Shown: one piece after another, positions 12,003 through 45,780 of the stretch | How the letters are laid out: each line of letters starts with the position of its first letter | Position numbering within the stretch: the first letter of the stretch is position 1 | NCBI GenBank assembly: GCA_963754875.1 | Contig: CAVWHO010000017.1 | Coordinates: 128,001 to 192,000 of the forward strand | Length of the DNA: 64,000 bases | Direction: 5' to 3' | Source of the DNA: Nitrospirota bacterium | GTDB lineage: Bacteria > Nitrospirota > UBA9217 | The notes under the pieces: generated by a model | Databases searched by the model: none | What the model saw: only the letters and a program-made list of their open reading frames with translations | Told to the model about the DNA's origin: nothing | Position numbers and translations under genes: made by a program

Positions 12003-13586
12003 AGTCCATATCGATCAAAAAAAGAATATTCCGCGCGTTCGCATGTAAGATACAAAACGAAATTGTTATTTTTTCAGCTTCTATGCAAACCAATGTTTGT
12101 AGGTGTTATGTGGAGCTCCACATAACACCTATTATGGTGCGCCCGGCAGGGCGCGCTCACTTGGAGGTGTAAGTCCTCTACGGACCCTGATGACGGGAAC
12201 CGTTAGCCGAACCGCAAGGGCTGCCGCCGCGAGGCGGGGTCTGAAGGAAGCGGAACGCAAATCCCCGGCCCGAAGTACATGAAGCGCATACGAGGCAGCC
12301 GCGTCTGGGCGAGAAGGCCATAATATTCAAAGCCCGATAGTCATTCGGAAGACGTGGAAGTAGATGCGACGGGTATATGGGGAGAAAGTGGGTGCGCAAT
12401 ACCCGGGGAGGTCTGCAAGCTTGCTATGGCTACCACCGTCAAGAGACGGCGGGATGAGCTTGCAGAAGTCAGCCGAGGGCATACTAGTCGCTGCGCACAG
12501 CGATGAAGGCCCGAACATGGAAGGACGGAGGGGTGCCGAAACCTCGATGGACGAAGCAGACGCGCGAAGGAAGGCTGAGATGCCAGAGGACTCCCGGAAG
12601 GTAGCGGGCGGAACCCGTAAGAATACGGCGAGGGAGCGTCAAGCGTCCGCGGCGGCAGAGGAGAACGCCCAGCCGGAAGCGACGAATCTCTTAGAGGAGG
12701 TATTGCGCCGTGAGAACCTGATAGCAGCCTTACATCGCGTCCAGTCGAACAAAGGAGCGCCGGGAGTAGACGGCATGACCGTTCTTGAACTCACGCCCTA
12801 CCTTAAGACGAACTGGCCGCGCATCCGGGAAGAGTTGCTGAGCGGACAGTACGACCCTGCGGCCGTCCTTCGGGTAGAAATCCCGAAGCCGGACGGAAAG
12901 GGAATGCGACTGCTCGGAATCCCCACCGTGCTCGATCGGTTCATCGAACAAGCAATATTGCAGGTACTCACCCCTATCTTCGATCCACAATTTAGCGAAA
13001 GCAGCTATGGTTTCCGCCGTGGACGGGGCTGTCACGGCGCAGTAAAAGCAGCTCGCGCCCATGTGGAAGCAGGCTACCGCTTTGTGGTGGACATGGACTT
13101 GGAAAAGTTCTTTGACCGCGTCAACCACGACGTACTTATGGTGCGGGTGGCCAGACGGGTCAAAGACAAGAGACTCCTCCGACTCATAGGCCGCTATTTG
13201 AGGGCAGGCATCATGATCGGAGGGATCGTTCAAGCCCACGAAGAAGGGACGCCACAAGGTAGCCCACTCTCGCCGCTTTTGTCTAATATCATCTTGGATG
13301 ATCTGGACAAGGAACTAGAGCGAAGAGGCCACCACTTCTGCCGGTACGCCGATGACTGTAATATCTACGTCAAGTCGAAGGCAGCCGGAGAACATGTTAG
13401 CGCCGGTCATGCCTGGACCCACCCGCGGCCAGATTTCGGACCCACTCACCGATTTTTGATCTACTGAGCAAACACCGGTTACCAGACCCACCCTCTTATC
13501 TTTCTATCTCCTCCCTTTCTATTTCTCATCGACAAGCGCATCATGTCTGTCCATATGTTCCTCATTGATCTCAAAGCGGAGGAAGT

Positions 13587-14003
13587 ATGGAGAAGACGTG
13601 CGCGTGCTGCAGCAAGACATTCATCCCATTGCCTACGGTACGCAACCAGCTGTACTGTTCGGAGACACAGTGTCAGAAGGCCAGGAAGAAACGATGGCAG
13701 AAGCGGAAGCTGATGACCGACGAAGCCTATCGAGAAAATCAAAGCGATGCCCGGAAAGCATGGGTCAAGAAGAACAGCGACTACTGGAAACGGTATCGGG
13801 AAAAGAATCCAGCCTACACAGAGCGCAATCGTCTTCTCCAAAGGGAGCGCAACCGGAGGAAGAGAGGGGCTCCAGTGATTGCAAAGATGGACGAGTTAAC
13901 CCCGCGAAAAACAATAGTTCCCGGACGATACAGGCTGGTTCCTGTGATTGCAAATATGGACGAGCTGATTGTGGAAATAGGCGTCATATCAGGGGTTTCG
14001 TAG
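13587..14003 (+). CDS. IS passenger protein with Cys-rich N-terminus
   Basis: CACC..YCSETQC, basic helix, repeated IA(K/N)MDEL. Confidence 0.65.
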   Translation: MEKTCACCSKTFIPLPTVRNQLYCSETQCQKARKKRWQKRKLMTDEAYRENQSDARKAWVKKNSDYWKRYREKNPAYTERNRLLQRERNRRKRGAPVIAKMDELTPRKTIVPGRYRLVPVIANMDELIVEIGVISGVS

Positions 14004-14100
14004 AGCAGCCGGTAAGCTCCTGATTGCAAAGAGATGACTTGATGGCTTTTCGTCATGCTGCCTGTTATGCTGGCCGTGCTTTTTAAGAGGAAGATCTCGT

Positions 14101-14973
14101 ATGCATGAAGCATTTCCCATAGAAGACCTTGCGGTATCGGCGATCGGCCGGAAGTACGCGGAACTTCGCATCGTAAAACCCCGGGCGGACAGGGTCATGG
14201 AGAAATCGATACGACAGTACGGCCAGATGCTTCCGACGATATGCGTCAGGTCCGGATTGGGCTACGAGATGATCGACGGGTTCAAGAGACTCAGGGCCTG
14301 CCAGCGGCTGGGAAGAACAACGCTTTCAGCGCGGATCCGGGAGGAGATGCCGGAACGCGTGTGCAAGGCCGCCGTTGTCCAGTTGAACCAGACGAGCATG
14401 TCCATAAGCGATCTGGAGGAGGCCATGGTGATTCAGTCCCTATATCGTAAGGACGGGATGAATCAGCCAGAGATCGCAGTTTTGTTCGGACGGGACAAGA
14501 GCTGGGTAAGCCGTCGGCTGTCCCTGATTGAGAGGCTTTCGGAAGAGGTTCGGAAGAACATTATGCTGGGACTGGTTTCGGTTGTAACGGGGAGGGAGTT
14601 GGCGCGGTTGCCGCGCGGCAACCAGGATGAAGCCTTGGCCGCTGTCGTCAAGCACTGGCTCAGCACCAGAGACGTGGCGAAGCTGACAAGCCATCTGTTG
14701 TCCCGCCCGTCATGGGAGTATGCGGTGATTCTCAAGAACCCCTGGGAGGTGCTGGATCTTGAGTCGAAACCATCGTCGTTCGATTTAAAAACGAGACTCC
14801 TGTCCATGCGGAAAAGCTGCCGGGCGGTATCAGATATCGCATCTACCTGTGGACGGCAGGAAGCGGAAAGACAGTCGGTCCTGATAGAGGGCGCCATCGC
14901 CGAGGCTCTTACGGCAGTAGAAAACTTAAGAGGCCTTATCCGCGCAAATGAGCAGGGAGTCAAGCAGTGTTGA
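14101..14973 (+). CDS. ParB/Spo0J-like protein (ParB N-domain + HTH)
   Basis: SIRQYGQ..P, IDGFKRLRA, EIAVLFGRDKSWVSRRL. Confidence 0.85.
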   Translation: MHEAFPIEDLAVSAIGRKYAELRIVKPRADRVMEKSIRQYGQMLPTICVRSGLGYEMIDGFKRLRACQRLGRTTLSARIREEMPERVCKAAVVQLNQTSMSISDLEEAMVIQSLYRKDGMNQPEIAVLFGRDKSWVSRRLSLIERLSEEVRKNIMLGLVSVVTGRELARLPRGNQDEALAAVVKHWLSTRDVAKLTSHLLSRPSWEYAVILKNPWEVLDLESKPSSFDLKTRLLSMRKSCRAVSDIASTCGRQEAERQSVLIEGAIAEALTAVENLRGLIRANEQGVKQC

Positions 14974-16574
14974 TTAGGAGCCGCAAAGAACTGGAACATA
15001 AAGTGATCATCATGCATGCCGAAGGCTCGAGTATCCGCGAGCTCTCCCGGCGTTTCCATTTGGGTCGTAACACCATCCGAAGAATCCTCCGGGACCATAC
15101 GAGCCGTCGTGATCAAGGGCATGATATCCTGACAAAGCCCCCTGTTCGGACGAGCAAGCTGGATGTCTATGCTCCACTGATTAAAGAAACGCTTGAGAAA
15201 TACCCGACCATCACGGGCCTGCGGGTCTATGAAAAACTTAAGGACGCCGGCTATGCTGGCGGCATCACCATCGTGCGGGAACAGCTCAGGAAGCTGGGAG
15301 CAGTGAAAAGGGATCCGGTAATCCGGTTCGAAACGGGTCCAGCGCAGCAATCGCAAATGGATTGGAGCCCCTACACGATCCACTTCACGCGCACGGGCAA
15401 GATGACGGTCTTGTGCTTCTCCTATATCCTGGGCTACTCCCGGAGACAGTATATCGACTTCACCCTTCGTCGTGACTTCCACACTCTTATCCGTCGGCAT
15501 CAAGATGCCTTTCAGTACTATGGCGGGGTTGCAAGGGAGTGTCTTTACGATAACGAGAAGACCGTTGTGCTTCGGTGGGAAGCAGGACGACCGATCTTTA
15601 ACCCGGCGTTCGCGGATTTTATAACGTTCTATCGCTGCAAACCAATAGCCTGTCGACCGAGGACGCCCCAAACAAAAGGAAAAATAGAATCCCCTTTTAA
15701 ATATGTGGAATCCAACTTGCTGGGTGGAAGAGATTTCCAGGATATCGAAGACCTTCGTGCTACCGCCAGATGGTGGCTCAAGGAGAAGTCCGATCTGCAT
15801 ATCCATGACACCACCCGACGAGCGCCGATCGAGCTGTTTCAGGAAGAGAAGCAGAAGCTTCAGCCCCTCCCTCTTCATCCTTACGATACCTCCGAGGTTG
15901 CACTACGGGTCTGTGAAGGAGACGGCTTCATAGAGTTTGAAGTGAACTGGTACTCCGTGCCGCCCAAAAACATAGCCGACATCGTAACGCCTAAAGCGAC
16001 GGAACGGGAAGTGTTGATTTACAGTCCGGAGCTGGAGCTGATTGCCCGGCACGAAAGGCAGCCCGCGGGGAGCCGCAAGCGGATGGAGAACCCGGAGCAT
16101 TTTGTGACAAAGAAAATCCGCTATGGTCTGGAGCCTGTACGAGAGGCGTTTATCGCGCTGGGAGACGGCGCTGAAAGCTTCCTCGCAGGGCTTACAAACA
16201 AACAGCCACGGAACTGCGGGTTCCATGCCCGGTTCATCCTGCGGCTTAGAGAAGAGTATCAAAGCGAGGACATTAATAACGCCCTAAAGCACGCGGAGCG
16301 GTACCAGGCATACGAGGGTGGAGCCGTGGAGCGGATTTTAAAAGCCATGGCCACCCCCCGTACCCTGGAGTCTATCCGCAATGAGCATGCGCGTCAGGAA
16401 CTAGGGAAGACCCTGCCCAGAATCACCCAGCGGTCGTTGGATGAATACCAATCCTTGATGGGAGAAGAAAAAAACCACCATGAACAAAAAAACGACGGTG
16501 CCGGACGAGACGGTGACGAACATCAAGAAACATCTTGCGACTCTGAAGCTGACGGGAATACAGAAGGTACTTGA
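14967..16574 (+). CDS. istA: IS21 transposase IstA
   Basis: RFETGPAQQSQMDW, YDNEK, PQTKGKIE. Confidence 0.93.
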   Translation: MLIRSRKELEHKVIIMHAEGSSIRELSRRFHLGRNTIRRILRDHTSRRDQGHDILTKPPVRTSKLDVYAPLIKETLEKYPTITGLRVYEKLKDAGYAGGITIVREQLRKLGAVKRDPVIRFETGPAQQSQMDWSPYTIHFTRTGKMTVLCFSYILGYSRRQYIDFTLRRDFHTLIRRHQDAFQYYGGVARECLYDNEKTVVLRWEAGRPIFNPAFADFITFYRCKPIACRPRTPQTKGKIESPFKYVESNLLGGRDFQDIEDLRATARWWLKEKSDLHIHDTTRRAPIELFQEEKQKLQPLPLHPYDTSEVALRVCEGDGFIEFEVNWYSVPPKNIADIVTPKATEREVLIYSPELELIARHERQPAGSRKRMENPEHFVTKKIRYGLEPVREAFIALGDGAESFLAGLTNKQPRNCGFHARFILRLREEYQSEDINNALKHAERYQAYEGGAVERILKAMATPRTLESIRNEHARQELGKTLPRITQRSLDEYQSLMGEEKNHHEQKNDGAGRDGDEHQETSCDSEADGNTEGT

Positions 16575-17286
16575 CGATGAACTGACCAAGGCAACGGCGA
16601 AGCATCTGCCTCCCACCGAACTCCTGGAGCGGGTGCTCTCGGTAGAAGCCCATGCCCGTGTCGAACGAAGGATCGAACGGAGGATCAGGGAAGCAAAGCT
16701 CTCGGAACGAAAGCTTCTTGCCGACTTCGACTTCGTCTTCCAGACCGGCGTGGACAAGGCGCAGATCATGGAGCTGGCCAAGCTGGACTTCGTGGGCCGC
16801 AGGCAGGGGCTGGTTATGGCGGGCAACTCGGGAACTGGCAAGAGCCATCTTGCCAAGGCGCTTCTTCTCATCGGTTGCACCAAGCTCTATCGCTGCCGCT
16901 ACACCACCGCGGCCGACATGCTGGTCGACCTTATGTCCGGCCTCGCCGACAACAGCCTTCCGAAGCGGCTCAAAGAGTATACCGTTCCTGATATCCTTTT
17001 TATCGATGAACTGGGGTTCGATCGTCTTGAGCAGTATGATGCCAGGAACGCATCCCTCTTCTTCAAGGTCATCGACGGCCGGTACTGCAAGGGATCCACG
17101 CTCATCACTACGAATATCGATTTTAAAGAACTCGGAGATTACCTGGGCGACCCCGTGGTCACAACTGCTATCGTGGACCGCATGGTGCACCACTCCGTCA
17201 TCATCAATATCAAGGGGCCGAGCTACCGTATGCACGAATCAAAGAAGCTCAACTCAAAAGTAAAGAAACCCTCCGAATCAAAGTAA
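16480..17286 (+). CDS. istB: IS21 helper ATPase IstB
   Basis: GNSGTGKSHLA, IDELG, AIVDRMVHH, GPSYR. Confidence 0.95.
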   Translation: MNKKTTVPDETVTNIKKHLATLKLTGIQKVLDDELTKATAKHLPPTELLERVLSVEAHARVERRIERRIREAKLSERKLLADFDFVFQTGVDKAQIMELAKLDFVGRRQGLVMAGNSGTGKSHLAKALLLIGCTKLYRCRYTTAADMLVDLMSGLADNSLPKRLKEYTVPDILFIDELGFDRLEQYDARNASLFFKVIDGRYCKGSTLITTNIDFKELGDYLGDPVVTTAIVDRMVHHSVIINIKGPSYRMHESKKLNSKVKKPSESK

Positions 17287-18720
17287 AACCCTCAAACGCA
17301 ATCCGTCCGTTCTTCCTCTACATGCACCAACACACAACCCTCTGCGCTCAATCTTTACGCTCTAATGCTCATAAAAAAATCCAACTTCACAAGAAATATC
17401 TCTGACAAAAGGTAGAATCGAAATCTAGACGGGTCTTCAAACCGGCGCGGATCCTATCGGTTAATCAAAATCACGCAACTTCAAGTGGGTCCAGCAAAAC
17501 CGCTGAGGTGGGTCCGTTTCAAGCCGGTGGTAGCAGAGAACAGGTGATGCAGTCAATCACCCGGTTTCTTGCAAAGAAGCTACGCTTGACGGTTAACAAA
17601 GAAAAGAGCGCGGTAGACCGTCCTTGGAACCGCAAGTTCCTCGGTTACACCATGACATTGCATCGTAGCCCGAAACTCAAGGTGTCGCCGAAAAGCATCA
17701 AGAGAGCCAAGGCGCGTGTTAAGGAGATCACCCGAAAGGGACGGGGACGCTCACTGCCGAAGGTGATTGCCGAACTTACGAAGTACCTTCGGGGATGGGT
17801 AAATTACTTCCGGCTGTCCCAAGTGAAGATCGCTTTCGAGGAACTGGATCAATGGATACGGCGGAAACTGCGCTGTGTCCTCTGGCGACAATGGAAGAAG
17901 CCGCGAACCAGAGCCAAGAAACTTATCCAGCTAGGGATAGAAAAGGTAAGAGCTTTTGCCTCAGCCTACAATGGCCGGGGTCCATGGTGGAACGCCGGCG
18001 CGTCACATATGAACGCTGCGGTAACCGCCAAAGGGCTACAACAACAGGGACTCATGAGTCTTCTCACAGAGCATCGACGCTTTACAGACCTTGCGTGAAC
18101 CGCCGTATGCCGAACGGCACGTACGTGTGGTGTGAGAGGCTGGGGCCGGAAGGCCCCCGCCTACTCGATTGAAGTTCCCCGTTATGTGAATCGTTTGCAT
18201 TAAATCCTTTATTAGTGCCTATTCTGCGAGAATTTACTCCACATAATAATGCCGCTGTCTTCGATATCCTCTTCATTGGAACCAATCAAATGAGGAGGTG
18301 CATATGGTCACGTCACAAGAGGAATGGAATTTGAATTGCACTGAATACTGTGCGATTTAAGCAGTCCCGTGAGTGTCTTTCTTCTTTTGAACCCGCTTAC
18401 ACGGTGACAATCTAAAATACCTGATCAAACAAAGAAACAACATTGTATACTGCTTTGATTCGTCGTAAGAGCCTCCGTTATGTGAAGTAAATTGTTAGAA
18501 AACCGCTGAATTTCCTTTGCTCACGACATTTGCTTCACATAACGGGGAACTTCACATAATAGGTGAACTTGAGAAAATCCAGTGTGCTAAAAAATATCAA
18601 AAAAGGCAAAATAGACGTAATTGATACAATCAATACATGATGGATAACACCTCGATTATCAAAGCAAAACGGGAAACCAGGCTTTAATCAAGGGTCTCTA
18701 AAAAATGGCTTGTTGTCGCG

Positions 18721-18762
18721 CATAACCCGAAGGTCGTCTGTTCAAATCCGGCCCCCGTGCCA
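18721..18762 (+). repeat. 3' half of tRNA-fMet (att-like scar 2)
   Basis: CATAACCCGAAGGTCGTCTGTTCAAATCCGGCCCCCG with CAT anticodon and T-arm; no D-arm upstream. Confidence 0.85.
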
Positions 18763-18770
18763 ATCAATAC

Positions 18771-18800
18771 AAAGGGTTACAGCACATGCTGTAACCCTTT
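18771..18800 (+). terminator. Perfect hairpin after scar 2
   Basis: AAAGGGTTACAGCA-CA-TGCTGTAACCCTTT. Confidence 0.7.
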
Positions 18801-18871
18801 GCTATCCCAGTGGGCCGGTAATGGGCCGGTCTCCTCAATGCTGTCCCCGCTACCTAAAATGGGAGATCGTC

Positions 18872-19329: not shown

Positions 19330-19611
19330 ATGACAAAACTTATTATTGAAACCGATGATGCCTGGGCTCGTGAAAAGATCAAATTTGCCATCGATACGGA
19401 AATTCACCTCCTAAAAAAAACAGTCGAAAAGATCGACCGTAAAATAAAAGACTTTGAGAAACAATATGGGCAGCTCGACCGAGAAAATCTCTACGGTAAA
19501 GTAGACGACATGATCCTTGTTGAATGGGAGGGAGAGGCAGAGGCAGAATCTCTGCGGCGTGTTCAGGGCAGACTGAAATCGCTTGAGGAGATCAGCTTTG
19601 AGTATCGATAG
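19330..19611 (+). CDS. Putative antitoxin (TumA-like)
   Basis: KIKDFEKQYG..D...EWE pattern; overlaps the downstream toxin gene. Confidence 0.6.
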   Translation: MTKLIIETDDAWAREKIKFAIDTEIHLLKKTVEKIDRKIKDFEKQYGQLDRENLYGKVDDMILVEWEGEAEAESLRRVQGRLKSLEEISFEYR

Positions 19612-19993
19612 TTATATTGCAGATTTCGAAACTGTCATTTCAACGCATTCCTTCGTCTCTTCCTACTCGCTCACCATCGATAGAAAAACTCGTGATATTA
19701 CTTTTCTCTCGGAAACCATAGAATTCAGGAATGGAACAGTACTTGATTTTAAGGAGTTTATCGAGAGTAAAGGCACGGCGATAGAAAAATATCTTTATGG
19801 ATACAATCATCGTCTGGGCAGTACTCTCATTTTCCGCTACGACAATTCCCCGGATCCACGCGCACGCCAGATAAGAACATTCCCGCACCACAAGCATCTT
19901 CCGCCGGACAAGCTTGTCGATTCCGACAGACTGATTGACTTGCCTGCTGATCTGAAGGAGATTGAGGGCTTACATACTGAATCGGAAGAATAA
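19598..19993 (+). CDS. DUF6516/TumE-like toxin
   Basis: FRYDNSP..TFPHHKH motif. Confidence 0.75.
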   Translation: MSIDSYIADFETVISTHSFVSSYSLTIDRKTRDITFLSETIEFRNGTVLDFKEFIESKGTAIEKYLYGYNHRLGSTLIFRYDNSPDPRARQIRTFPHHKHLPPDKLVDSDRLIDLPADLKEIEGLHTESEE

Positions 19994-45627: not shown

Positions 45628-45676
45628 TCGGGTTTCACAACCGAAGGTCACGTTTTCAAACCTTGTCACGCTACCA
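45628..45676 (+). repeat. Decayed tRNA-fMet 3' fragment (att-like scar 3) with downstream hairpin and CAGGACA repeats
   Basis: TCGGG..CACAA-CCGAAGGTC...TTCAAA...CGCTACCA then TATCAAGGGGTTACAGC as after scar 1. Confidence 0.7.
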
Positions 45677-45780
45677 AATCTATCAAGGGGTTACAGCACA
45701 TGCTGTAACCCCGATTTATTTATCAGGACAGTCTCAGGACACTCTCGAAACATGAGATGTGACAGTGATAAAAGACGAGT

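Follow-up and report, generated by a model that had tools for sequence, protein, structure and literature searches.

A gene-less RIT derivative beside a palindrome, interrupted by a group II intron, in a Nitrospirota genome

MITEs of DDE insertion sequences are short, gene-less elements which keep both ends and are moved in trans. RIT elements are widespread, and their repeated boxes and adjacent palindromes were reportedly described by Ricker in 2013. According to the accessible part of one account, RIT elements comprise three overlapping recombinase genes, measure about 3.5 kb and are bounded by an inverted repeat of 28-29 bp with an overlapping palindrome (PMC3414803), and the available text of another source places the Rit proteins among the simple recombinases related to Xer (PMC8138268). 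The “RIT” of a further paper stands, in its accessible text, for terminators and is unrelated to these elements (PMC12306157). A 2023 source, in its available part, states that laboratory reproduction of RIT transposition is still lacking and lists movement as untested; it also presents the SE elements and Tn554 as transposons with tyrosine recombinases which bring 6 bp of donor flank to the target and produce no target duplication (PMC10214605). Class C group II introns, as far as the accessible text goes, insert a few bases past DNA stem-loops such as terminators and attC sites (PMC4424553).

Here, a locus related to these systems is described from a Nitrospirota bacterium (contig CAVWHO010000017.1, positions 128,001 to 192,000; this stretch of 64,000 nucleotides is termed the window, and all coordinates without a contig name refer to it). 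An earlier note, made from the letters alone, had reported a gene-less mini-element with recombinase-like sites at 12100-18565, and all features that it listed were re-found. Removal of a group II intron (12137-18169) joins 12136 to 18170 and yields the described two-arm site of 11-6-11 layout, which is present only in the intron-free form; it also restores the left end, whose 32 bp equal 18534-18565 read on the opposite strand, so that the claimed inverted repeat is exact without the intron. Each end carries two direct boxes 17 bp apart and one inverted box; box 2 and the inverted box inside it together span 65 bp on the left as well as on the right. The TTATG-type boxes lie at 12132/18170, 18182, 18238 (a one-base variant, TCCACATAA), 18478, 18534 and 18551. 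TAGGTG is indeed repeated at 12100 and 18560, and 12100-12131 form a perfect 32-bp palindrome in which a 20-bp core (PAL) is enclosed by a hexamer and its inverted copy. This palindrome ties with one other as the longest perfect one in the 4.3-Mb host genome, and its fold, hexamers included, is a hairpin of 14 bp (-16.9 kcal/mol, z -8.7). The order host, 6 bp, PAL, inverted 6 bp, element, 6 bp, host is the usual RIT layout, and the three hexamers are all identical, the middle one being inverted. The element, referred to below as the window mini-RIT, measures 395 bp from box to box and 433 bp including palindrome and hexamers (Table 1).

Table 1. Features of the interrupted locus in the window
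Feature	Position	Strand	Basis or remark
Outer 6-bp spacer s3 (TAGGTG)	12100..12105	+	left limit of the putative mobile unit
PAL, 20-bp RIT-associated palindrome with two outward-facing TTATG boxes	12106..12125	.	motif scan and fold
Middle 6-bp spacer s2 (CACCTA)	12126..12131	+	inverted copy of s1 and s3
Left terminal box 1, first 5 nt, severed by intron	12132..12136	+	sequence
Group II intron, 5' part with RT	12137..13394	+	Rfam RF02001, RF01998; RVT_1
IS21-like insertion in intron ORF	13395..17535	+	138-aa ORF, ParB-like, IstA-like, IstB
Group II intron, 3' portion (maturase domain)	17536..18169	+	GIIM
Left terminal repeat, remainder: end of box 1 and box 2 (18182-18190)	18170..18190	+	
Left inner inverted box	18238..18246	-	
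ritA remnant: ribosome-binding site, ATG at 18304, frame closed at codon 19	18292..18378	+	identity to L281 and L038
ritC 3' remnant up to stop codon 18466-18468	18368..18468	+	67% to L038
Deletion joint ritA/ritC	about 18368-18383		
Right inner box	18478..18486	+	
Right terminal repeat with its pair of boxes, spaced 17 bp	18534..18559	-	
Distal 6-bp spacer s1 (TAGGTG)	18560..18565	+	right limit of the putative mobile unit

Ends of this type are common. The exact 32-bp end was found at three contig ends with differing flanks in one Nitrospirota metagenome-assembled genome (MAG), the named records bearing the identical end or the palindrome belong to Nitrospirota, and a degenerate double-box pattern was matched in at least 134 stretches. 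Among the matches listed, paired inverted ends occur at 24 loci, 18 of which are 3.1-3.6 kb long, one 5.7 kb and five 271-888 bp; this count excludes three rows, namely a spurious start in L035, a row of L067 that begins in PAL and a 100-bp row of L137. At locus L038, three overlapping ORFs lie between such ends and all three match Phage_integrase, as do both scanned ORFs of L042, and the three proteins of L281, a metagenome contig, are 67-75% identical to the L038 trio. The ends of the window mini-RIT are therefore RIT ends, since the same ends flank Phage_integrase trios. The core agrees with this assignment: its positions 1-209 match the full RIT L281, from the left end into the start of ritA, at 78% identity (76% for the ritA-side match to the full RIT L038), and its positions 199-390 match L038 at 67% over the end of ritC and the right end of the element. 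The earlier description of the core as gene-less holds insofar as there is no complete gene, but the core does contain the ribosome-binding site and start of ritA, whose frame meets a stop after 18 codons, and the 3' end of ritC.

In comparison with an autonomous RIT element, the locus has the palindrome adjoining one end (12100-12131) and a terminal inverted repeat of 26 bp plus a 6-bp spacer, which is exact without the intron and compares with a range of about 28-34 bp. Its 395 bp fall far short of about 3.5 kb, and instead of three adjacent overlapping tyrosine-recombinase genes only the ritA 5' and ritC 3' remnants are left. Judged from these alignments, the window element is an internal-deletion derivative of a RIT element that kept both ends; it stands outside the autonomous RIT family because the genes are gone. 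The proposal of a non-autonomous element with RIT-like ends made in the earlier note, which was to be abandoned if further copies, an empty site and recombinase-associated homologous ends were all missing, is borne out, as such ends are abundant in other genomes, like ends flank three-integrase elements and sister miniatures exist in relatives.

The same note had likened the joined site to dif and had considered an invertible switch. A dif-like site for the host XerC/XerD or a phase-variable switch is very improbable, even though the joined 11-6-11 site agrees with the dif sequence given in that note at 17 of 22 arm positions, XerC/D-like genes are present in the host genome and the available text of PMC8138268 relates the Rit proteins to Xer; inversion relative to PAL also occurs within the RIT family. 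Both ends and core derive from a RIT element and the site is split by the intron. The 11-6-11 layout is not a stand-alone site but arises where one arm of the RIT palindrome meets a RIT end, and scanning the host genome for dif-like motifs gave no match. A regulatory switch is further disfavoured by the split left box and by the surroundings, as no adjacent gene start faces the element and the promoter scan of the element found one site (1.7 expected), located at the right end, and none inside the core.

The window mini-RIT is single-copy in the host genome by motif scan and blastn, so that the search for further copies suggested in the earlier note recovered none there. No RIT trio was found in this genome, which is 90% complete: none of its 14 integrase matches forms a trio, and tblastn searches with seven trios gave best hits of 22-32%. 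An adjacent integrase pair on host contig C22 was rejected as a candidate, its neighbour being a primase gene and not a third integrase. Cognate helper recombinases were thus not detected in the same genome, and no close ritB was found in 63 genomes of the family; distant ritB genes (35-37%) are present in G001 and G085.

The same deletion joint recurs in four further copies in three genomes of the same genus: two in G001 (76% and 78% identity), one in G002 (79%, outer ends lost) and one in G003 (69-87%), the latter interrupted by an insertion that we take to be IS3-like. Including the window copy, five copies with the common joint are thus known in 4 of 64 genomes. All of them differ from L281 by the same 1-nt indel, and they lie between mutually unrelated flanks. 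Remains of PAL lie on the ritC side in the second G001 copy and in G003, and on the ritA side in the window copy. Movement after gene loss is the simplest reading of a shared joint and indel at unrelated sites, and we regard it as quite likely, from comparison of the copies, that this miniature lineage moved after the deletion by means of RitABC supplied in trans. Since the sister miniatures are only 69-79% identical, this movement would be old. A dead relic, formed when the middle of an inserted full RIT was deleted on the spot and never mobile as a miniature, would account for the single copy and the missing helper in the host genome. It also draws on the short derivatives with other joints, namely L039 and L041, which are of similar size, and L055, L133, L169 and L193, whose differing joints indicate that deletions are frequent. 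We nevertheless consider a relic improbable, as it is opposed by five copies in four genomes, including a pair within a single genome, that have joint and indel in common but occupy unrelated sites. One of the short derivatives, L039, is a 386-bp mini-RIT with the same end type on a contig binned as Methanosarcina, which could be a binning error or a transfer to an archaeon.

An exact search for PAL retrieved at least 121 loci. Among the matches listed, PAL lies beside a RIT-type end at 67 of 117 usable sites by one classifier and at 61 of 114 by a second, and 46 of about 115 usable sites are solo PALs by both. The hexamer pairs of these 46, again among the matches listed, are inverted in 25 cases, direct in 4 and other in 17. 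At junctions of PAL, 6 bp and an end, the matches listed contain identical inverted hexamers in 62 of 114 cases, and no junction has more than four differences. The full layout (host, 6 bp, palindrome, 6 bp, element, 6 bp, host) is found in 27 complete units among the matches listed, which are not independent as they include same-genome copies and count L162 twice; the palindrome adjoins the ritA side in 14 units and the ritC side in 10, and its side is unassigned in 3. All three hexamers are equal in 13 of these units, s1 equals s2 in 3, s2 equals s3 in 3, s1 equals s3 in 1 and all differ in 7. Consequently, the outer hexamers differ in 13 of the 27 listed units, which argues against plain target duplication.

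Removing PAL, the element and one hexamer gave an open frame in all 12 units tested, these being the units with unequal outer hexamers and enough flank; in just two cases was the native hexamer assigned, on the plausibility of the resulting protein. Nine of the 12 rejoined frames resemble what we take to be known proteins (IS256, IS66 TnpB and HUH transposases, an integrase and a kinase). The open frames imply that PAL is not native to those targets. Empty sites for the 25 other units were not found among the fetched loci, apart from one spurious hit.

The window copy and its sister copies suggest that the adjacent palindrome is a travelling part of the RIT recombination machinery. In a model to which we assign nearly, if not quite, an even chance, PAL would travel with the element in a circle with two junctions, and 6-bp spacers would be passed along. 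Recombination at the two outer hexamers would produce a circle of element and PAL carrying two two-armed core sites, each composed of a PAL arm, 6 bp and a RIT box in the 11-6-11 arrangement. For insertion, either site could open at a host hexamer similar to its own; the hexamer of the target would stay at the RIT end and the older hexamers would be carried along. Insertion via the other site would place PAL at the opposite end, with the element flipped relative to PAL, and a second recombination might separate the element from PAL and leave a solo PAL. As predicted by a joint circle, element and asymmetric PAL centre are both flipped between L019 and L044, which have the same flanks in one MAG. 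On a single contig, L160, L177 and L208 have the carried hexamers in common and vary in the distal one. Exonuclease-resistant RIT DNA was reported with no mapped circle in the accessible text (PMC5737581), so that hairpin-ended forms, too, are possible on that source.

Alternatively, PAL may have been there first, or have been left by an earlier RIT, with the element inserting beside it and later inversions across mismatched hexamers, followed by replication, giving rise to the inverted hexamers. The abundance of solo PALs (the 46 among about 115 usable sites of the matches listed), solo TAGGTG-PAL-CACCTA sites in G026 and G001, and L162, where one RIT is flanked by two PALs, speak for this sequence of events, and an inverted-copy outcome is expected, by reasoning, from tyrosine-recombinase strand geometry. 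Against it stand the joint flip of element and PAL centre in L019/L044 and the observation that the PAL sequence tracks the RIT subfamily; moreover, two independent hits at one hexamer are required. We regard prior residence of PAL, the main rival, as the less likely of the two. With three identical hexamers, the window locus alone cannot discriminate between the models.

The same host flank occurs twice in G001, next to a PAL arm in L305 and next to the end of a miniature in L155 (95% over 757 bp), the exchange point being the hexamer, and the L145/L159 pair behaves alike (84%). Mini ends and PAL arms are thus interchangeable recombination partners. Extending the travelling-PAL model, we tentatively propose that PAL may be a separable recombination adaptor, in effect a 20-bp non-autonomous element, that the hexamers may record recent targets, and that miniatures of 270-490 bp and solo palindromes may have been moved or left by RitABC acting in trans.

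Several further sites deserve mention in their own right. One subfamily (L162, L188, L193, L214 and many solo sites) has GGCCGA at all three positions at unrelated sites, which suggests strict spacer matching in that lineage. At a repeated host site in one MAG (L070 and L185), one copy holds an 888-bp RIT derivative without PAL and another holds PAL without an element, both inserts lying between direct hexamers. The host genome contains another 32-bp perfect palindrome of 6+20+6 layout, a solo one at C20:179251-179282, which joins two different outward-pointing integrase 3' fragments, each starting at Arg-His codons; it resembles a trace left by a different RIT subfamily, comparable to L299.

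An IS21-like insertion of 4.1 kb in turn divides, at 13394/17536, the intron that interrupts the left end. The intron shares 99-100% identity with a 1884-nt copy on host contig C18 (99.8% for the 5' part), and its insertion point lies 5 nt past the palindrome hairpin. The sister introns at C18:18981-20864 and C20:9326-12373 both follow terminator-like hairpins; the C20 copy carries a separate insert of about 1.15 kb close to the same part of the ORF. The intron combines a group II RNA with an ORF for RT and maturase and, like its copies, sits behind a stem-loop; it appears to be class C-like, as judged from its ORF and RNA matches and its insertion pattern. The IS21-like element is present in a single copy with a 7-nt overlap at its ends; two extra ORFs, of 138 aa and 290 aa (ParB-like), lie upstream in it. 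Probably, the intron used the PAL hairpin as a stem-loop target, split box 1 and thereby immobilised the copy, and the IS21-like element then broke the intron. The window copy is probably immobile as the intron cuts box 1; it is also probably inactive, and an effect on the host is not evident. No other intron at a PAL junction was found among the fetched loci, and as the sole such case this insertion was probably opportunistic.

The empty site suggested for this locus in the earlier note did not turn up, as no empty allele was found among 60 relatives. G003 shares the PilZ gene of the locus and diverges about 45 bp before the site; in G024 and G019, the left host flank is homologous up to TAGGTG and lacks the palindrome, and the right flank is not shared. 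Of 21 sequencing runs (top share 0.08), none contained the window stretch, and contigs from four runs did not cover any of 18196-18459 and contained no joints. Comparison of the window element with plasmids gave no match and with viral contigs one hit.

Several observations concern the neighbourhood. Degenerate 3' halves of tRNA-Met with a hairpin occur in the window at 18718-18801, about 549-623 and 45641-45711, and on the host contig at C17:116027 and 120624; four repeats lie downstream of an intact tRNA-Met. The repeats suggest a tandem island array, with the mini-RIT at the end of one segment. At an 80% threshold, each of the four unrelated runs has contigs matching 18583-18735, in front of the tRNA fragment; this stretch is thus a conserved non-coding piece. 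Downstream, at 19330-19993, lies a small gene pair whose second member matches Pfam TumE, likely a toxin-antitoxin module.

The locus provides a natural minimal substrate of 433 bp, for which matching trios (L038, L281) and exact predictions on circle junctions and hexamer inheritance are at hand, and it makes the RIT mechanism directly testable. Gene-less miniatures and solo palindromes would be missed by gene-based annotation, yet they mark rearrangement joints.

With RIT elements as presented in the accessible parts of PMC3414803 and PMC2864759, the window element shares terminal inverted repeats of about 30 bp, the adjacent palindrome and descent from ritA and ritC. RIT elements are about 3.5 kb long and carry genes, whereas the window element has 395 bp and no recombinase gene and consequently requires help in trans. 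Miniatures, solo palindromes and the three-hexamer layout are not described in the available text of these two sources, and literature searches retrieved no paper on any of the three, part of which may nevertheless be in print. Size, gene loss and retained ends resemble those of DDE MITEs, but the window element has tyrosine-recombinase sites, and its outer hexamers, equal here and different in 13 of 27 units among the matches listed, do not represent a true target-site duplication. Insertion past a stem-loop is as in class C introns (accessible text of PMC4424553), the hairpin here being the RIT palindrome. Finally, the carriage of 6 bp proposed here for RIT elements is known from SE elements and Tn554; in contrast to the latter, RIT elements have near-perfect inverted-repeat ends and an additional hexamer in inverted form, and two of their hexamers enclose a palindromic module of 20 bp.
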